From sequence record PZ347775.1: a stretch of 64,000 nucleotides of DNA. One strand, written 5' to 3'. Below are positions 330 to 60,338 of this stretch, in pieces. A program made the position numbers and the translations under genes. The first letter of the stretch is position 1, and every line of letters starts with the position of its first letter. A model generated the notes under the pieces. It did not search any database, had not been told where the DNA came from, and was given only the letters and a program-made list of their open reading frames with translations. Source of the DNA: a phage.

Positions 330-466
330 AAATTTACCATACTAGTGAATGTAGTGCCATAATAACATCAGAAATGAAAAGCACGACTTGAATTAATCCG
401 AACATTACTCCATAATATAGTGCTACCAATAAAGCAGCAAGGGCTACTGAGTAGCCCAAGATTTTC

Positions 467-625
467 TTAATCATTAGTAGATAACAACACAAATGTTAAA
501 TATGCACACATACCCTGAGCTAAAGCTTGCGAAAACACACTGCTGGCATCAATACAGATAGTTAAAACGCATGCTACTATCCAACAAATAAATGAAATAA
601 CTCCTAATAATTTTGCAATATTCAT
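467..625 (-). CDS. 52-aa hydrophobic membrane protein at the ac position
   Basis: ORF below the 60-aa track cutoff (MNIAKLLGVISFICWIVACVLTICID...); GAGGA SD 5 nt upstream; lies between stp and gene 52. Confidence 0.5.
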   Translation of the reverse strand: MNIAKLLGVISFICWIVACVLTICIDASSVFSQALAQGMCAYLTFVLLSTND

Positions 626-632
626 ATTTTCC

Positions 633-713
633 TCACTGGCGTCCGAAGACGCCTTTAGTTTTAAGATTGTTACGATAGAACTGCATCACGTGTTCGTTAT
701 GGAAATTACTCAT
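633..713 (-). CDS. stp: Stp peptide (26 aa), modulator of host PrrC anticodon nuclease / restriction
   Basis: Translation [26 protein letters not shown] matches T4 Stp as I recall it; start overlaps ndd stop (TAATG); absent from ORF track. Confidence 0.8.
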
Positions 714-1168
714 TAATATGCCTGCAAAACAAATTTAAAGTTATCAGCCAACATACGGTTCATTTCTTCAAGTGTTTGATACTCAGAATGATGATTACGA
801 GTAAACGCCAAAGCTAACTGACCCTTTCCAAATCCCGTCGTCAGAGGTTTCATCTTAGAAGCAGGCAAATAAAATACTGTATATGGAACATTGTTATTTG
901 CAATAGTACGCGCAAGCTGAGATCGACGCTGGCGAATATGACTTAGAACTGCACTGAATCCTTGCTTAGAACGCTGATTACCTACATAAAATCGTGCAGA
1001 TACACACGGATTATCAAATGGACCGCCAAATTTGCTCACTAAAAAGTAAAATCCAGGTTTAGATAAAATATCTTTATGTGGAACTCCCAAAAACCATTCA
1101 CCGTTCTTGATTGTACCAATAACGGTAGCGCCTGCATTGTTCAGATCAGTAACAGTCATATATTTCAT
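713..1168 (-). CDS. ndd: Ndd nucleoid disruption protein (151 aa)
   Basis: Starts at [25 protein letters not shown] with GAGGA SD; track ORF is extended upstream by a non-ATG start. Confidence 0.85.
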
Positions 1169-3321: not shown

Positions 3322-3516
3322 TTATTTGAATTGTGCAATTCTTTTCTCTAAACAATCTGCATAAGATTTCATTGAGATAAACTGCGAAAGCAGTAATTCT
3401 TGCTCGACTTCATTAATCGTTAGAAACTTTGTGCTTTCTAAAAATTTGCTTAGTGCATTAATTTTGAGCATTAATTGATCGTATTCTTCTTTTACTCGTG
3501 CTTGATAACCTAACAT
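3322..3516 (-). CDS. hypothetical protein (denB.1 position)
   Basis: 64-aa ORF with ATG and AAGGAAA SD. Confidence 0.5.
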   Translation of the reverse strand: MLGYQARVKEEYDQLMLKINALSKFLESTKFLTINEVEQELLLSQFISMKSYADCLEKRIAQFK

Positions 3517-4494: not shown

Positions 4495-6672
4495 TTAGGC
4501 CGCAAGGGCCTTCATAGTTTTAGCGATTTGGGAAACTTCATCATCACTTAAAGAATTGCGATAACCGATGAAGTCGGAAACAATACGGAATTTCTTGGTA
4601 AACTCAGCAACCATTTTATCACTGTTTTTTAAAGCATTACGTGATAATTCATCAAAAAGATTAGTTACGGTCCAGATGTCATGACCGATGGTATCTTTTC
4701 CACCATTGAAATATACACCCCGCAATGAACTAACCATATTACCAAGGCGAGTATATTCTTCGGAAACTTCATCTGTACTGAAATATTTCATCATAAAATT
4801 AAGTTCAGGATACTTAATAATTTTATCAATATATCGCTGAGCTGAACTTGAATAACCTACATACTTATCATAATCTACATCGTCAAAAGCATCTACATAT
4901 AAATCACGCAGAGTTTCAAAAATACATTGGCACTGACCAAGTTCTTTTACCTTTTTCTGCAAAAGTGGACGAATAACATAAAATTCATTAATGCCAATAA
5001 GATTAGCCATACGGGTCAAAATACTCGTAGATGGATTACAAAGCGATGTAGTACCATCCATAGAGAAAATATCAGAACGATGCATATATGCTACATAACC
5101 AGTAATTTCATCTGCTTCTGATGTGAGCGTAAACAGTTCCTCTTTTTCCCAGCGCCCGTCTTTAATTTCAAACTTAAATGCAGTAGCAGTTTTAGGACGA
5201 GGAGCTGCGCTTTTTACTACCTTTGGAATATAACTTTTAACTAAAGCTTCGATTTCTGACAAATAATGAATGTTAACTTCATCACTTTCAAACATTGCCA
5301 TAATGTCAGGAAGCAAATCAATCTGCGATTCTACTTCTGGATTAATAAACAGAAGCCGCTCATTGTGATGAATATTTAAGGTGTTATTAAATTCGCTATC
5401 ATCTAATGCACGTGCTAATCCACGGACAATATTAACACGATTTTTAGTATTATCAATAACAATATTAATTTTTGACGTATTAATACCAAACAGACGATAG
5501 CTTGACGCAACGGCTGAAGTTTCATGGCTTTGCTTAATGCGTTTCAGTCGAGGGTCAAGATTTACTTCATACACAACCCCTGCATTGCATAACTTACTGT
5601 CAGGTTCAAACATACTCTGCATCTTTTTATATGACAGATTTTTAGTCGTGAATTTGACTGAATTGCTAATCATATAATCTCGGGCAGAATATCCCATCTT
5701 CATCAATTCACGGTATGTATGACGAGGAGATGTAGATTCTTTAAATCGTTTTACATCTTCATTAAACGCCTGCTCACTGAGCTCTTTAACACGCTCAATA
5801 ATATTTTTACGAGTACGATCATCTAGTGAAAGAGCCTCACGCGATGGGGCAATATCAAGTGAACCCATTGGAAACTTAATGTAATTCACTTCATTGCGGA
5901 TGCTTAACCAGTTACGATCTCTAATAACACCTTCGATAGGATAAACAATGCCGCCATAGATAGCATACAATCCACCGCGATCTGGCCAGTATCTTTCTGG
6001 ATTTACGCCGTAATAATCATCAAAATCCGGAAAATAATCAATTTCGCGGTCAAGACCGTTAATGATAGCCAAATCTTTGAATGGTCGCATAATATAAGAA
6101 ACTTCATAAGCAAAGTTTCTAAAGTCTTTTTCTTCAACTGGAACTACGATTTCAATACCAGTTTTATCATCTGGACCCATTTCTTTTACGAATGTAGGTT
6201 TAATCTGTGGACCATCACCATCCATGTAAGCTACATAACCACGAATTTCACCTTTATGATATGAAGTAATACTAAATGTATCAGTATAACTAAACGGAGA
6301 TTTAGAACCTAAACCAAATCCACCAATGAAATCATTAGATTCAGCCTTAGATGAACTAAAGTATGAATTATACAACCCAGGAGAATTATCATCACCCTGA
6401 ATATCAAAATCGCTCATACCTGGACCAAAATCTCGGCAAACAAATCGCGGATCTAATCGTCCTGGAACTTGAATGATAAATTTTTCAGGATTTCCATTAA
6501 GAGCATGGGCATCAATCATGTTGGTAATCAATTCACGGACTACTGCGCGAATCTTGTTTGTATACAAATCAGATGACAGAATTTTAAATACTTTAGGAGA
6601 CGCTGTGATGCTAAATGCTTTTGATTTAGAACCATTACCAAGAATTGTTTCTTTTTCAGTGGTGATAATCAT
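4495..6672 (-). CDS. rIIA: rIIA membrane-associated protein (GHKL-type ATPase-like N-terminus)
   Basis: 725-aa [54 protein letters not shown]; T4 rIIA length and sequence. Confidence 0.95.
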
Positions 6673-15504: not shown

Positions 15505-16107
15505 TTATAGATTAAATCCTTCAAAATCAAGAGTATAGATAGTGTATGTTGAATACTTTTTATACTCGTATCTATCCGCAATTCTAAATACACTTCCAGC
15601 TGGTATCATTACTTCCTGTTCATCTGAAACTAATTCCATATTACGATAACGATGGCTATCCGGAAATTTAAAACTCGGACTATATTCTTTACAACGTAGA
15701 GCTTTTATAGCATACTCCTGAAAATTAAATACCATAGGAGCTTTGAATTCAAAAATAACTTGTGTGTTGTATTCTAATCCAGAAGCAAAATGCAGAGCTA
15801 TATTTTTATCATATGAAGCTGATACTACTTTATCGAATGTAATAATATCAATTCCTTGATTTAACACCTGTTTAGTCTCAACTGGAACACCTCTCCAAAG
15901 AGGTTTATCGTTTGGAACCAAACGAGATTTGATTATTTCATTTAACCAAGAATGATCGTCTGGCTTATTAGTAATACAATGAATTAAAAGTTCAATTTCA
16001 GATAAATTAAATCCTTCAGAAAGTAATTCTTCACGAATAGAAGCACGCACCGATGCATCCATTGATTTTATTTTAAAATCTTTTAATTGCATTGCTGAAT
16101 ATTTCAT
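15505..16107 (-). CDS. modA: ModA ADP-ribosyltransferase
   Basis: 200-aa ORF; R-S-E motifs LWRG / SASYD / DEQEVMIP; T4 ModA length. Confidence 0.9.
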   Translation of the reverse strand: MKYSAMQLKDFKIKSMDASVRASIREELLSEGFNLSEIELLIHCITNKPDDHSWLNEIIKSRLVPNDKPLWRGVPVETKQVLNQGIDIITFDKVVSASYDKNIALHFASGLEYNTQVIFEFKAPMVFNFQEYAIKALRCKEYSPSFKFPDSHRYRNMELVSDEQEVMIPAGSVFRIADRYEYKKYSTYTIYTLDFEGFNL

Positions 16108-16727
16108 TCAACTACCTCAATATCATACACTTTAAATGTTCCAAACGAATCATGTAATTTTTCTTTTGAAATAGAAGTTATTTTATACTTTCCAATTGGA
16201 ATCATCCATTCTTGTTCACGTACAATCATCATTAAGTTATCAGTACGTTCTGAATCTAATCCATCAGTATCTTCATATGTATACTTAAACTCAGTATTAG
16301 GAGAAGAAAGTATAATATCGCTGATATGGTCAGAGTAATTAAAAGCTTTATCAGTTTTTAAGCGAAGTACTATTTCAGTGAAATATTCAGCATAGGAAAA
16401 AGAACACGCTGTATGCAAACTAGTAGTAAATGAATCTACTCTGTTCGTTGAAAACACTTCTCCAACTTGTAAATCTTTAATGAGTTCTTTTGTCGATTTT
16501 GATATACCACGATATAACTGATAAGGTGATTCAGTTAAATGCTTTTTAATGATTTTATTCAACTGCCGATGAAGAGCTTCATTCTTTTTGGCTTCCATAC
16601 ATTGCCAAAGAATTGACTGTTCAAAGTCAGTAAATTTTTCACAGACCTTTTTATACATATCATATTGAAAATCGACACTTTCAGCTTTTATAGATAACTG
16701 TTCAACATCTGCGAGATTAATAATCAT
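16104..16727 (-). CDS. modB: ModB ADP-ribosyltransferase
   Basis: 207 aa from second ATG after GGAGG SD; motifs LYRG / SFTTS / REQEWMIP. Confidence 0.88.
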   Translation of the reverse strand: MIINLADVEQLSIKAESVDFQYDMYKKVCEKFTDFEQSILWQCMEAKKNEALHRQLNKIIKKHLTESPYQLYRGISKSTKELIKDLQVGEVFSTNRVDSFTTSLHTACSFSYAEYFTEIVLRLKTDKAFNYSDHISDIILSSPNTEFKYTYEDTDGLDSERTDNLMMIVREQEWMIPIGKYKITSISKEKLHDSFGTFKVYDIEVVE

Positions 16728-16753
16728 GATAGCCTCCATATACTTCAGAAGCT

Positions 16754-54991: not shown

Positions 54992-55019
54992 TTTCTGTTC
55001 CTCCGTAGTTGATAGTTGT

Positions 55020-55049
55020 ATAGTACCACAGAGGAACAGTCTTGTAAAC
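55020..55049 (-). promoter_or_regulatory. T4-type early promoter
   Basis: -35 GTTTAC (55044-55049), 18 nt, -10 TACTAT (55020-55025); same module as at 1907-1936. Confidence 0.5.
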
Positions 55050-55051
55050 CA

Positions 55052-55366
55052 CTAAAAGAAACTTCTTTCGCAATTTTTTCCACTGAACCATGCGCTCACT
55101 GCTTTCTTAGTCTCAGGAGCAGTGTTATCCATAAACCATTCAAAGGCAGCCTTTTTATGATTCTGGAGGGCTTCTCGGGCTTTAATCTGCTCACGGTCTA
55201 TTAACACTAACATATGAGCCTTTCTTGTCACCATGGGCTTCTTATGATTTTTTGAATACTCCCAGTCATTTGTCCATCGCATTGTCGTTGCGAACTGAAA
55301 TACAGCTTCTTTAATCTTAGTTTCGTAAATTTCACGAGCCTTTGAGTATAACATCACTACCTCCAT
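55052..55366 (-). CDS. hypothetical protein (104 aa)
   Basis: ORF. Confidence 0.5.
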   Translation of the reverse strand: MEVVMLYSKAREIYETKIKEAVFQFATTMRWTNDWEYSKNHKKPMVTRKAHMLVLIDREQIKAREALQNHKKAAFEWFMDNTAPETKKAVSAWFSGKNCERSFF

Positions 55367-55436
55367 TCACCAGTTTAATTCTAGTCATCTTTTTGATGGC
55401 AGTCCATATAATCTATTTCTGAACTGTCTTTTTGTC

Positions 55437-56156
55437 TTAGGATTCTTCTAAATGTCTTTTCTGAAAAGTTGATACCATACTACGATACGGTTCATTTGGA
55501 TACCCGTGTTTTATAGCTTCCTTTGTAAATTTTCTCCATCCATATTTAGTTTCTTTCCAAAGCTCGAATAATTCATCTTCATATTGCCATATAGTTAAAT
55601 GAGAACGCTTTGCAGCTTTAATTCCATTAATATGCTTTTCTTTTACTACAGGATTACTTAGTTTCTTTTTAATAATATTACTAACTTTTCTAACAAAAAC
55701 TGGGTCCTTATATCGTTGCGAAGTTTTTATTGAAGTGTTTAATTTAGCTTCCGGTGTGGATGTGACCTCTTTCATCTTTTTCTTCATATGCTGTATATGA
55801 TTAGGATTTTTCCATAAATTTATAGAATGCTTTTTGCATTTTATCCTAGTTTCATCTGCAACCTTTCCTCCTTCACCTCCGTATGACAGGTTAACACAGT
55901 TTTTTCCATATTTCAATTTACCTGCCATGATATATAATATTTCAGCTTGTACCATTTTATCATAATTATCAAAAACTTCTAAAACCGTTTTTGTTAATAT
56001 GTGGTCATTTGACACTTTTACACGTTCTATATAATTTCCACTACCAACATACGAATCATTGATGTTATTAGTTATATGTCGACCATAATAGTATTTCTTA
56101 ATACCTGTCTTTAAATTTAATATTTCAGTTTTATAGATAGTAAAATATTTTTTCAT
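55437..56156 (-). CDS. free-standing GIY-YIG (Seg-like) homing endonuclease
   Basis: N-terminal TIYKTEILNLKTGIKKYYYGRH ... SYVGSG; NUMOD-like repeats; C-terminal ELW...GYPN...YR module shared with the HNH endonuclease. Confidence 0.8.
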   Translation of the reverse strand: MKKYFTIYKTEILNLKTGIKKYYYGRHITNNINDSYVGSGNYIERVKVSNDHILTKTVLEVFDNYDKMVQAEILYIMAGKLKYGKNCVNLSYGGEGGKVADETRIKCKKHSINLWKNPNHIQHMKKKMKEVTSTPEAKLNTSIKTSQRYKDPVFVRKVSNIIKKKLSNPVVKEKHINGIKAAKRSHLTIWQYEDELFELWKETKYGWRKFTKEAIKHGYPNEPYRSMVSTFQKRHLEES

Positions 56157-57121
56157 TTTAATAATACCGTTTCAGCAATTTCTTCCCAACCGTTTTTGTC
56201 GGTCATAATAAAGTCAGCAAGATAAAGAGCAGTACGCAGTGAAACATTGCGTAAACGATTAACATTAACTTTCATCCATGATAATGCTTTATAAGTTTCT
56301 TCATCAGAAAGACCGCGCTTTTGCATCATGTCAGTTGAAAGAATAACATCTTCAACCCTGACCATAATTTCTTCATTAGTGTGAACACCCAAATCCAAAT
56401 AAACTGAGCGGGACACCAATGCTTGTAAGTGTGGAGCAAGTTTAGTACCACGGTCTAATTCGCGGTCAATGTCAACGTTTGTGATAAAAACAATCGTTCC
56501 TTTAAATTCAAACTCACGGTCAATGCCTTTTTCTTCTAAGTAAGAAGATGCAGTGCTCCAGCAGACTTTACGGGTCTCTCCAGTGTCCAGAGCAGCTTTT
56601 AGAAGATTAAGAATGTCCATATCAGAGAAAACATCCACATCATCAATCAAAAGGACAGAATTCTCTTCACGATTATTCCAAAGCTGTTCATAAAGACCAA
56701 TACCAGAGATTTTACCATTAATGCTTTTATATTCAATGTATCCATTATCATTTGCTTTATTTAAAGCTTTATCTAAAGAATACGTTTTACCAATACCTGC
56801 TGCGCCAGAGATAATTAATGAACGAATATTTCCATTAATAATACCATTCGTCATCATTCCCATAACATTAAATCTTTTATTAATGCGGGTTTTCATATCT
56901 TCATATGATTCTTTAACTTCTTCAACTTTTACACCATCATATGAAATATCTGATTTGTAAACCCAAACACCGCGACGTTTACCGTCAATTTCAACAAAAA
57001 CTTTACCATCTCCTTGTGCATCTACCGGAGCATTATCTGGGAACCATTCGCCTAAGAGCTCAAAAGTTCCAGAGATTTCTTTACCGAAGTAGATACCCTT
57101 ATTGATAGTTACAGTTTTCAT
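56153..57121 (-). CDS. AAA+/P-loop ATPase (322 aa)
   Basis: Walker A GAAGIGKT, Walker B LLIDDVD, sensor-1-like FITN; ATG after GGAGAATAAA cassette. Confidence 0.7.
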   Translation of the reverse strand: MKTVTINKGIYFGKEISGTFELLGEWFPDNAPVDAQGDGKVFVEIDGKRRGVWVYKSDISYDGVKVEEVKESYEDMKTRINKRFNVMGMMTNGIINGNIRSLIISGAAGIGKTYSLDKALNKANDNGYIEYKSINGKISGIGLYEQLWNNREENSVLLIDDVDVFSDMDILNLLKAALDTGETRKVCWSTASSYLEEKGIDREFEFKGTIVFITNVDIDRELDRGTKLAPHLQALVSRSVYLDLGVHTNEEIMVRVEDVILSTDMMQKRGLSDEETYKALSWMKVNVNRLRNVSLRTALYLADFIMTDKNGWEEIAETVLLK

Positions 57122-57182
57122 TTTATTCTCCAAATCCGTATCAGTTGATAGTTGTATAGTACCATACCCCCTTTGTGTTGAT

Positions 57183-57668
57183 TTATTCCATTTCTACTAT
57201 ATGCATGTTCTTTTTGCTATCAAAATATATGTTTTTAACTATTAACTCAGAATTAATTGGCAGTAAAAACTCTCTTTCATAATCTACCATACAAAGATTA
57301 TCATAAAGCTTGTTAAGCTTATCATCGTCAGTTTGGCCAGATTCTTCAATTGCGATTAAATTTTCTAAAATGTCAATCATAGCAGTCGAATAGTCAAAAA
57401 CGTTTGCATTTTTTAACACTACTAAAACATTAGTCATATAGCGTTCTGCCGCAAACGTTTCAGCTATATGAGACTCACTGCTAAAGGAAGTTATTCTTTT
57501 AAATTTGATTCTCCTATTAACTTCAAACTTATAAGATAACACTTCCTCTATTGTAAGTCCTCTAAAAAGTGTGTCTTTAATCTCAAGTTTGTCTTTAATG
57601 TAATCATTAACACGCTTATGATTAAAATCATTAATTTTGTTGCCAAGGCATTGCATTAAAATATGCAT
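57183..57668 (-). CDS. ModA/ModB-like R-S-E ADP-ribosyltransferase candidate (161 aa)
   Basis: LFRG / SFSSES / YEREFLLP in ModA-like order and spacing; GAGGAG SD; own early promoter. Confidence 0.6.
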   Translation of the reverse strand: MHILMQCLGNKINDFNHKRVNDYIKDKLEIKDTLFRGLTIEEVLSYKFEVNRRIKFKRITSFSSESHIAETFAAERYMTNVLVVLKNANVFDYSTAMIDILENLIAIEESGQTDDDKLNKLYDNLCMVDYEREFLLPINSELIVKNIYFDSKKNMHIVEME

Positions 57669-57714
57669 TGTATTCTCCTCAATTTTTAAAGAGCAATTAA
57701 TTAACTACACATAT

Positions 57715-57744
57715 ATTATAATATGCTTTGCGATAGAAGTAAAC
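57715..57744 (-). promoter_or_regulatory. T4-type early promoter
   Basis: -35 GTTTAC (57739-57744), 18 nt, -10 TATAAT (57715-57720). Confidence 0.5.
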
Positions 57745-57772
57745 AACTTTGTGACGTCATTTTAAACAAAAA

Positions 57773-57790
57773 AGGGAGCCCGAAGGCTCC
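57773..57790 (-). terminator. UUCG-tetraloop hairpin / terminator after nucleotidyltransferase operon
   Basis: gggagcc-cgaa-ggctccc immediately 3-prime of the 57794 ORF. Confidence 0.5.
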
Positions 57791-57793
57791 CTA

Positions 57794-58807
57794 TCATTTA
57801 TAATAACTTCGGTGGTTTTCAAGATAAACCCTCTCAAGGAAGTCATCCCAGAAACCCATGTCTACTTTTTGCTGCATACCGTTCTTAGAAGCTTCAATGG
57901 ATGCTGCTTCTACTTGATCGACCACATCTTCCAAAAACTCTTGAACAGTTTTAAATGGATGCTTACCCAACTTCACGTCGAGAATAAACGGAGCATCTTG
58001 GAGTGGATAAACCAAGTCACCAGTTTTGTAAATTTCCAATAGTTGGAGTCCACCACGACAAGCATGGCTCAAAGCTTTCCAGTCAATGCCCTCATTCGCT
58101 TCAGCTTTACGAGCGCGTTCACCGTATTCGGCATCAAGTTTATTCAAAGACTGCTTAAGCTCAATAAGAGAAAGTGTTGTCTGATATTTACGACCCAACA
58201 CGGTATAGAACGTTTGAGGGCCTGTTTTCTCATGATTATGGAATACCCATTCGCAGAATTCGTTCTCTGGAAGACGATGCTTAATATCTTCAACTTTAGT
58301 GCGACGTTGCTTAATAGAACCATCTTCTTGGTAATCAACCCACTGGTCAGGGATTTGATTAACTACTTTCAATACATCACGTAATGCGGCCAAACGAGAA
58401 CCCTTAACACCATATTTAGAAGCTTGCTTGCGAACATATCCTAAATAGGATTTCATGTTAGTTGTATAAAACCGTGAACGATTGTCTTGAATAAACTTCC
58501 ATACATCAGGCAAATCAGATTTAACTACCAGTTCAGGTGGAGTGTGGAGCATATCCAATGCTACGGTTTCACCATCTGCTGCTAATTTAAAGAAATACTT
58601 AAGACTGTATAGTTCATGGTCAATATCATTTTTAGTGTTTTTAGATGATGTGTTGTTAGTGTTTTTACTCATATGCTCTTTAACATTTCCGATAAGAATA
58701 TCGCGAGCAGGAGGAACAAAGATTTCTTTAAAATCTACATCAGATTCTGGTGTAGAAGTTCCATAAAGATGACTACCAAAATAGCTTTTCATTACTGTTT
58801 TCATCAT
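57794..58807 (-). CDS. Pol-beta superfamily nucleotidyltransferase (337 aa)
   Basis: N-terminal hG[GS]x10DhDh motif: YFGSHLYGTSTPESDVDF; remainder helical; overlaps upstream gene by ATGA. Confidence 0.65.
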   Translation of the reverse strand: MMKTVMKSYFGSHLYGTSTPESDVDFKEIFVPPARDILIGNVKEHMSKNTNNTSSKNTKNDIDHELYSLKYFFKLAADGETVALDMLHTPPELVVKSDLPDVWKFIQDNRSRFYTTNMKSYLGYVRKQASKYGVKGSRLAALRDVLKVVNQIPDQWVDYQEDGSIKQRRTKVEDIKHRLPENEFCEWVFHNHEKTGPQTFYTVLGRKYQTTLSLIELKQSLNKLDAEYGERARKAEANEGIDWKALSHACRGGLQLLEIYKTGDLVYPLQDAPFILDVKLGKHPFKTVQEFLEDVVDQVEAASIEASKNGMQQKVDMGFWDDFLERVYLENHRSYYK

Positions 58808-59265
58808 TCAGCCTTATATTCAATAACAGGACATACTTTAGCTTTACGCGCTTTTAAAAATTCGACGATAATAGATTTCTTTGGTTGAATAGGAGGTAAA
58901 CCTTTATACGCCCTATCAATATTTTCTACATGTAAAGCATAATCCTTTTTCCATTTATAATCTTTATATTTTTCATGCAGTTGTGCAGGAATAACAAATG
59001 AACCGATAATAAGTAAAACAAGCAAAATGGCAAGTATAAATGCCGATGGAATAAGAGTCCATAAACTACCAAAAATAAGCCATTTCTGCATGATTTCTGC
59101 GCAGATGATAGTTAGACCTGCGAGTATAGTACATCCGAAAAAAGAAACAAAAAATGTAGGAATAACAATAGACCAAAAGTATGCACACAGTGTCTTAGGT
59201 CGTTTCCATTCATCATTAAACATTTTGAATAATTTATAGTGCCAAGAGCTTTCATTAATAATCAT
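58804..59265 (-). CDS. membrane protein (153 aa, about three TM helices)
   Basis: Hydrophobic segments; translationally coupled to nucleotidyltransferase. Confidence 0.6.
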   Translation of the reverse strand: MIINESSWHYKLFKMFNDEWKRPKTLCAYFWSIVIPTFFVSFFGCTILAGLTIICAEIMQKWLIFGSLWTLIPSAFILAILLVLLIIGSFVIPAQLHEKYKDYKWKKDYALHVENIDRAYKGLPPIQPKKSIIVEFLKARKAKVCPVIEYKAE

Positions 59266-59267
59266 AA

Positions 59268-59789
59268 TTATCCTTTCATTGAAGGTGTAACGGTTGTTAA
59301 ATACTTAATCATGGCTTCAGCTTCTGATTTTGATAATGAAATTTCTCCATTGTTTTGACGAATAGAAATAAAATCCGGATGACGGTCACCACCAGCTTTT
59401 AAAACACACATATAAGTATCAGTTTCATCTTCAATATTTGAAATGATTGAAGCAGTTCCGCATGAATGTGGTTTTTGATAAATCAATACAGCTTTTCTTC
59501 CACCGTTTGACTGTTCATAAACTTTTAACACATCAAACAAATCGCTTCTTTTATCAATAGCTAAGATGTTGTTTTCATCTTCAATGTTAAATCCTTCGGA
59601 TACTTCATAAAGTGTCACCCATAAATCGCCAATATCGATAGTAGTATTTTCCTTTCCATGACTTTCAAGAGCGTGACAAATTTTCTTAATTTCGTCATAA
59701 CTCATTTTAACAATATCATCTCCTTGAATAAGGAAGATGTCATTTTTAAATTCAACACGAATTAAACCGCTTTCACTTGAAATAAACAT
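59268..59789 (-). CDS. hypothetical protein (173 aa), paralog of next gene
   Basis: Shares GFNIE and C-terminal EAEAMIKYLTTVTPSM block with 59796..60338. Confidence 0.55.
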   Translation of the reverse strand: MFISSESGLIRVEFKNDIFLIQGDDIVKMSYDEIKKICHALESHGKENTTIDIGDLWVTLYEVSEGFNIEDENNILAIDKRSDLFDVLKVYEQSNGGRKAVLIYQKPHSCGTASIISNIEDETDTYMCVLKAGGDRHPDFISIRQNNGEISLSKSEAEAMIKYLTTVTPSMKG

Positions 59790-59795
59790 ATTTCC

Positions 59796-60338
59796 TCACT
59801 TTGAAATCATAGTTGGAATGACAGAATCAAGATAAGTCTTTAGCGCAATAGCTTCATCTTTGGTAAATGTGACAATATGCGCTCGAAAATCATCAATTTG
59901 ACGAATAGTTAAGACATCTCCTTCTTCATAACATTTTGATACATTTAAAACAGTTTCATCATTCTGATCGCACTGATCGCAAGCGTTAGTAATAATAGCA
60001 TTGCAATTTTTAAGCCATTTTAAACTATGTTTTCTTTCATTAGAATAATAAAAATATTTAATGTAAGTTATAAAATTATCCCAATTATTAATTGATAAGC
60101 ATATTGACTCGCTTTCAATATTAAATCCTGGGCATAAAGAATAAAAATGAATTTTATGCTCATCATTAATGCTTACAATTTTATCGGTGTAAGGTTTTTC
60201 AATTTGGGTTAAATGAATAATTTCGCTAGGCGTAAAATATAGCATATCGTCTTCTTGCGTCAAACGATACATATTATTTACTTTTTCTATAGCCAATTCA
60301 CCAAAAAGTGAACTAACTTCTAGTACTAATCGTTTCAT
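59796..60338 (-). CDS. hypothetical protein (about 180 aa), paralog of previous gene
   Basis: C-terminal DEAIALKTYLDSVIPTM; start either ATG 60338 or GTG 60362. Confidence 0.55.
   Translation of the reverse strand: MKRLVLEVSSLFGELAIEKVNNMYRLTQEDDMLYFTPSEIIHLTQIEKPYTDKIVSINDEHKIHFYSLCPGFNIESESICLSINNWDNFITYIKYFYYSNERKHSLKWLKNCNAIITNACDQCDQNDETVLNVSKCYEEGDVLTIRQIDDFRAHIVTFTKDEAIALKTYLDSVIPTMISK

Follow-up and report, generated by a model that had tools for sequence, protein, structure and literature searches.

A predicted N-terminally shortened Mod-family ADP-ribosyltransferase gene between nrdC.10 and nrdC.11 of a T2-like phage

The ADP-ribosyltransferases (ARTs) of phage T4 are usually summarised as Alt, ModA and ModB. 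In the 64,000-nucleotide stretch of phage DNA analysed here (sequence record PZ347775.1, hereafter the window), a 161-aa open reading frame (ORF) located approximately 41 kb away from modA and modB had been proposed, from a sequence-only reading, to encode a further ModA/ModB-like ART. This locus raises the question of whether the ORF is a genuine member of the same family, whether it is likely to be active, and whether it duplicates the role of its paralogues. T4 has been credited with three ARTs, and a "Mod family" has been placed in the RSE clade of these enzymes (PMC9503650, PMC10468400). We consider it probable that the ORF encodes a third, N-terminally shortened Mod ART: an early, arginine-directed host-takeover protein with a target set probably not identical to those of ModA and ModB, carried on a promoter/stem-loop (PeSL) cassette.

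The gene, its locus and its existing annotation

The coding sequence occupies positions 57183..57668 of the minus strand, as proposed and as found in the ORF list. It begins with ATG and encodes a protein of 161 aa (19 kDa, pI 5.3). The codons for the putative catalytic residues, read from the sequence of the minus strand, are located at 57561-57563 (R36), 57486-57488 (S61), 57276-57278 (E131) and 57270-57272 (E133). A GAGGAG Shine-Dalgarno sequence (57675..57680, minus strand, read from the sequence) lies 6 bases before the ATG at 57668. Further upstream is a T4-early-type sigma-70 promoter (57715..57744, minus strand) with GTTTAC at 57744..57739 and TATAAT at 57720..57715. Both of these signals had been named in the initial reading, and they are supported by inspection of the sequence and by a promoter scan, in which TTTACT-17 nt-TATAAT gave 10 of 12 matches and the top score of the region. 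The promoter is conserved in T2, as determined by alignment. A longer N-terminus was considered and rejected. The TGA stop of the upstream gene is at 57796..57794 (minus strand) and the ATG at 57668 is the earliest start codon past this stop, so that no upstream extension of the ORF is possible; the N-terminal extension in a 181-aa call for a homologue (P0002, described below) is hydrophobic and non-homologous and is probably spurious. No Rfam families were found in 55000..60000.

The window derives from a T2-like Tequatrovirus that is approximately 97% identical to its nearest records. Within it, the ART gene sits between an nrdC.10 orthologue (56153..57133, minus strand), encoding an AAA-like protein of PHROG 1250 (unknown function), and an nrdC.11 orthologue (57794..58807), encoding a 337-aa RlaP-family nucleotidyltransferase (PF10127, PHROG 388). 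In T4, nrdC.10 and nrdC.11 adjoin with a 114-bp spacer and no ART gene between them. The use of T4 as the point of comparison in the initial reading did not hold up, as the window is T2-like and T4 itself lacks the gene. The suggested check against T4 nrdC.11 and other T-even genomes had the outcome that the ORF is not an nrdC.11 orthologue; this identity was rejected because the true NrdC.11 is the adjacent 337-aa RlaP protein encoded at 57794..58807.

Two minor observations concern nrdC.10. First, its product has Pfam matches to AAA ATPase and "novel STAND NTPase" models at E-values of 1e-4 to 1e-3, all of which are below the gathering score. Second, a 239-aa ORF (55437..56156, minus strand) shares 4 nt with the 3' end of nrdC.10 and matches PHROG 314, a homing-endonuclease family (E-value: 1.8e-30), with no Pfam match. 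Because nrdC.9 directly follows nrdC.10 in T2 and ECO07P3, this ORF looks like an inserted mobile endonuclease gene.

The ART gene had been described as novel, but this claim must be withdrawn. Among 515 flank-matching phage records, 44 cover the gene, and tblastn identified 44 phage records with an orthologue at ≥90% identity, nearly all of them matched from end to end. Many of these orthologues are already named as ADP-ribosylases. For example, T2 RefSeq gp097 (YP_010073745.1) is annotated as "RNA polymerase ADP-ribosylase", the ACG-C40 protein (AFH20055.1, UniProt K4FJU3) as "ADP-ribosylase, ModB" and the ECO07P3 protein as "modA_2", while other records use ADP-ribosylase or modB_2. Salmonella phage F13076 encodes a 100% identical protein that is likewise annotated. 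A literature search found no paper on this gene, with most subscription journals lying outside the scope of the search. The gene is thus an already catalogued member of a known family for which no experimental study was found.

Relationship to ModA and ModB and the predicted fold

The two paralogues used for comparison are also encoded on the minus strand of the window: modA (15505..16107) specifies a 200-aa protein with R72, S96 and E163/E165, and modB (16104..16739) a 207-aa protein, counted from MIINL, with R73, S99 and E171/E173. The corresponding motifs of the 161-aa ORF are LFRG (R36), S61-F62-S63 and E131-R132-E133 (EREF). The R-to-S spacing is 25 residues in the ORF, 24 in ModA and 26 in ModB, while the S-to-E spacing is 70, 67 and 72 residues, respectively. 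The proposal of an R-S-E triad in the order and spacing of ModA and ModB was therefore correct, and MAFFT aligns the three motifs column for column. It also aligns the blocks FKRITSFSSESHIAETFA and FDKVVSASYDKNIALHFA exactly as had been done by eye.

In BLASTP comparisons, the ORF is 31% identical to ModB of the window over 142 aa (E-value: 1e-15) and 28% identical to ModA over 152 aa (E-value: 4e-11). Because ModA and ModB themselves share 26% identity (E-value: 6e-15), the ORF is about as near to each paralogue as the paralogues are to each other. PHROG 832 (phrog_832, "RNA polymerase ADP-ribosylase") matches ORF residues 2-153 (E-value: 7e-24), and tblastn with the ORF also finds modB of T4 and of many T4-like phages. 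Judged by these sequence comparisons, the resemblance to ModA and ModB is far beyond chance, and both this similarity and the order and spacing of the R-S-ExE motifs place the ORF in the Mod family.

Assignment to the Pfam family Mod_ADP_RT (PF26816) is very likely on the strength of its homologues, as it is these and not the ORF itself that carry scored matches. Specifically, precomputed PF26816 matches exist for P0001 (93% identical to the ORF), P0002 (61%) and P0003 (52%). Scans of the ORF against Pfam-A and NCBIfam gave no match, even at E ≤ 10, but this result is uninformative because the ModA and ModB controls also gave none (the library used contains no Mod model).

The putative catalytic residues are strongly conserved. 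R36, G37 and S61 are invariant in both MAFFT alignments of the ORF with its relatives. E131 and E133 are invariant in one and conserved at ≥90% in the other, being missing only in the truncated P0008, the sequence of which ends before this region. Among 17 family sequences, the invariant residues are R36, G37, S61, A69, F72, Y77, T79, N124, L4, C7 and K11. The [FYW]RG, S-x-[ST] and E-x-E motifs are kept in all 28 full-length family members collected, and the R-S-ExE triad in each of the seven orthologues examined. ModB R73, the residue that aligns with R36 of the ORF, is essential for both ADP-ribosylation and RNAylation (PMC10468400).

The main departure from ModA and ModB is at the N-terminus. 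The architecture of approximately 200 aa with an N-terminal helical region, seen in both paralogues, is not found in the 161-aa ORF, the start of which corresponds in the alignments to ModA residue 38 and ModB residue 37. It is thus 37 residues shorter than ModA at this end, close to the 35 or so estimated initially, and its C7 aligns with ModA C44. This short length is variation inside the Mod family and does not exclude membership, as Mod relatives of 175-189 aa also exist.

An AlphaFold2 model of the ORF, built from the 17-sequence alignment, has a pLDDT of 91.4 and a pTM of 0.84 with no disordered segments. In this model, R36 lies in strand 29-37 (the first core strand), S61 in strand 60-63 (the next motif strand), and strand 133-136 begins with E133, so that the ExE motif stands at the opening of the ARTT strand as in the R-S-E clade. 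This order of the R, S and E strands is canonical and is the same in a model of ModB from the window (pLDDT 89.9), in which the elements follow one another as in the ORF and are preceded by two N-terminal helices (5-14 and 18-29) for which the ORF has no equivalent. A Foldseek search against the PDB returned 75 chains at E ≤ 1e-3. The best 50 of these 75 are all R-S-E ARTs, namely C3 exoenzymes, Tre1, XopAI, ExoS, Vis, Certhrax, VIP2 and C3larvin. The best non-orthologous predicted viral structures are annotated as ModB or ModA (TM 0.79-0.87, query-normalised).

At the sequence level, a phmmer search of the ORF against PDB sequences gave no match. The family profile reached only sub-significant scores with SpvB and XopAI (E-value: about 0.3), yet the three motifs were correctly placed: in the weak local HMM alignment, YRG, tSfs and EqE fall on YRG, MSTS and EAE of SpvB. 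A complete ART domain is thus predicted with high confidence, with the pocket geometry deduced from secondary-structure positions and fold matches, and the proposal of an extra ModA/ModB-like ART is borne out by sequence, profile and predicted fold. The absence of the first 37 or so residues, comprising the two helices, could affect NAD binding or stability.

The Mod family is small, as a scan of 1.84 billion representative proteins yielded only 15 clusters at E ≤ 1e-3. In a neighbour-joining tree (constructed without bootstrapping and therefore only indicative), the ORF clusters with P0001, P0002, P0003 and five proteins 175-189 aa in length, and this group is separate from the clade of ModA and from those of the ModB-like proteins.

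These relationships bear on whether the ORF is simply redundant. A redundant active ART would modify the target of ModA (Arg265 of RNA polymerase alpha) or those of ModB (S1, EF-Tu and trigger factor, as well as RNAylation with NAD-capped RNA), providing an extra dose or a backup. We find this reading rather unlikely. The ORF does have the family and triad of its paralogues, is as near to ModB as ModA is and shares the early promoter class of the mod genes, but its identity to either paralogue is only 28-31%, the two N-terminal helices are absent and the unbootstrapped tree groups it with other short Mods, apart from both paralogues. ModA and ModB are equally diverged and yet have different targets (PMC9503650). 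The curators' label "RNA polymerase ADP-ribosylase", which would favour redundancy with ModA, was given by homology and is a transferred annotation. Taken together, the missing helices and an identity of roughly 30% speak against a simply redundant role without proving a new target; because of these two features, the target set of the short Mod is probably not the same as that of ModA and ModB.

Flanking PeSL units, distribution and selection

PeSL cassettes and their recombination in T4-type phages were described by Arbiol et al. 2010 (PMC2839356). Upstream of the ART gene, such a unit is formed by the early promoter described above together with the nrdC.11 intrinsic terminator (57763..57792, minus strand), which was identified in a terminator scan and consists of an 8-bp G+C-rich hairpin (AGGGAGCC-TTCG-GGCTCCCT) followed by a T-run. 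Alignment shows that this hairpin is also found in the nrdC.10-nrdC.11 spacer of T4. A second PeSL, downstream of the ART gene, is intact in T2, ECO07P3, ACG-C40 and CF1 and is deleted in the window. The gene is thus part of a PeSL cassette as judged both by PeSL flanks on its two sides and by its presence or absence between close relatives.

What remains of the downstream PeSL in the window is a remnant at 57134..57182 (minus strand), between the ART stop and the nrdC.10 start, from which 64 bp have been lost relative to T2, ECO07P3, ACG-C40 and CF1, with the junction between 57166 and 57167. The lost 64 bp hold a terminator hairpin (GGGGGCCCTAGAGGTCCCC plus a T-run) and the GTTTAC -35 box of the nrdC.10 early promoter. 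Because the terminator and -35 box are gone, the ART gene and nrdC.10 should be co-transcribed in the phage from which the window derives. This deletion junction is absent from all Tequatrovirus records in the phage collection. Gelderlandvirus STML-198 has a similar deletion with slightly different boundaries.

When the T4 spacer (NC_000866.4 excerpt, 3322..3435) is compared with the window (57100..57200 plus 57660..57830), it aligns as a chimera: its promoter half corresponds to the T2 PeSL downstream of the ART gene and its hairpin half to the upstream PeSL. This structure is consistent with PeSL-PeSL recombination having excised or inserted the ART gene.

Orthologues are found in Tequatrovirus, Gelderlandvirus (Salmonella phage STML-198) and Moonvirus (Citrobacter phages CF1 and Moon). 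The STML-198 and CF1 copies (401..886 of the extracted loci) have a dS of about 0.01 with respect to T2 and differ in the small neighbouring genes, which suggests that the cassette has recently moved horizontally from one Tevenvirinae genus to another. More distant homologues occupy other sites. P0002, from an uncultured T4-like phage, is encoded between regA (Translat_reg) and the gene 43 DNA polymerase at 5001..5546 of a 101-kb Logan contig (ERR12726568), an insertion site unlike that in the window, and P0003 is encoded downstream of an RlaP gene. A functional link to nrdC.10 or nrdC.11 was rejected, as orthologues and homologues have other neighbours. In Escherichia phage BW-1 (OR125554.1, 401..885 of the extracted locus), the annotation divides the orthologue into two CDS (401-691 and 688-885), a sign of a frameshift that would make this viable phage a natural knockout. 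The ART gene is accessory, mobile and dispensable because T4 lacks it, different genera share near-identical copies, its insertion sites vary and the BW-1 copy is frameshifted.

The BW-1 frameshift, the N-terminal truncation and the absence of the gene from most T-even phages might suggest that the ORF arose by duplication of modB and is now decaying or catalytically dead, either as a pseudo-enzyme or as a gene nearing loss. We consider this very improbable. Nei-Gojobori dN/dS between window-type alleles (window and ECO07P3) and T2-type alleles is 0.14-0.19 (about 0.17), a value that rests on about 13 synonymous and 9-13 nonsynonymous differences, and the ORF is intact in all seven extracted copies. 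On this ratio, the gene is under purifying selection. Nonsynonymous differences do exceed synonymous ones among the T2-type alleles (4-9 versus 0.5-2), as would be expected of a decaying gene, but these counts are too small to interpret and the low ratio applies over the deeper split. Every full-length homologue, even at only 52% identity, retains R, S, ExE and eight more invariant residues, and the tblastn matches run from end to end in nearly all 44 records. A confident and complete predicted fold, a promoter and strong Shine-Dalgarno sequence of its own, and horizontal spread across genera also speak against a dead remnant.

Predicted function and comparison with known ARTs

The function that we predict as most likely for the short Mod is that of an early-expressed, arginine-specific mono-ADP-ribosyltransferase. 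Arginine specificity is proposed because the ARTT motif of the ORF has the E-x-E form, the hallmark of arginine-specific ARTs such as ModA and ModB. In the predicted pathway, host sigma-70 RNA polymerase would transcribe the gene soon after infection, and the short Mod protein would bind NAD+ and modify at least one host protein by transferring ADP-ribose to its arginine side chains, a modification that may contribute to host takeover. Recombination between PeSL units would explain both the absence of the gene from T4 and its near-identical copies in three Tevenvirinae genera.

A non-classical activity was also weighed, with the protein being either an NAD+ glycohydrolase or an ART directed against a host defence protein or nucleic acid (counter-defence). 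The gene lies in a hyperplastic accessory region, its presence/absence polymorphism and inter-genus transfer are typical of host-range and anti-defence genes, and ARTs such as AcrIF11 are known anti-defence tools. Against this, neither the ORF nor either of its neighbours matches a PADLOC model, the neighbours vary such that a conserved partner is absent, and the E-x-E motif favours protein-arginine transfer. On balance, we judge such an activity to be quite improbable.

A bolder proposal, which we regard as unlikely, concerns the whole short Mod lineage. The gene, its 52-61% identical relatives and possibly the 175-189-aa proteins with which it clusters in the unbootstrapped tree would constitute a functionally distinct third class of T-even ART. 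Loss of the helices would have redirected the enzyme towards a host protein outside the target sets of ModA and ModB, perhaps one with a role in defence or the stress response, and the class would spread by way of PeSL units as a host-range or counter-defence module. If this were true, the PeSL cassette would spread short-Mod activity among Tequatrovirus, Gelderlandvirus and Moonvirus.

For the preferred reading, that of a third, shortened Mod ART, the implication is that some T-even phages, T2 among them, have a minimal Mod-type enzyme as a fourth ART, encoded on a mobile single-gene cassette. T2 with the gene, T4 without it and BW-1 with a frameshifted copy offer a natural contrast for examining the role of an extra ART in host takeover, and the short Mod bears on whether a 161-aa Mod core suffices for catalysis and target choice.

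Among the systems compared, the closest are the annotated orthologues (T2, ACG-C40, F13076, Moon/CF1 and STML-198), which are 161 aa in length and 92-100% identical to the ORF. Most Tequatrovirus orthologues occupy the nrdC.10-nrdC.11 slot like the window copy, which differs from them only by the 64-bp loss of the downstream terminator and promoter. T4 ModB (UniProt P39423), the RNAylation enzyme, belongs to the same Pfam and PHROG families, has the same R-S-ExE layout and, like the ORF, is encoded by an early-promoter phage gene; the order of secondary-structure elements is shared from the "iLxqC" helix on. In contrast to ModB, the ORF is 46 residues shorter, lacks helices 5-14 and 18-29 and is encoded on a stand-alone cassette 41 kb from the mod locus. 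With T4 ModA, R72, S96 and E163/E165 align with R36, S61 and E131/E133, and the TM score to predicted ModA is 0.79; the ORF differs in having S-F-S instead of S-A-S and an acidic helical insert (EESGQTDDDK) ahead of ExE. The bacterial R-S-E toxins (Tre1 6drh, C3 exoenzymes, Vis, Certhrax, VIP2, SpvB, HopU1 and ExoS) are only 8-19% identical to the ORF. Unlike these toxins, the ORF has no secretion, translocation or immunity partner, its domain is smaller than theirs, and it carries a phage-specific N-terminal "LxxC..K" motif.
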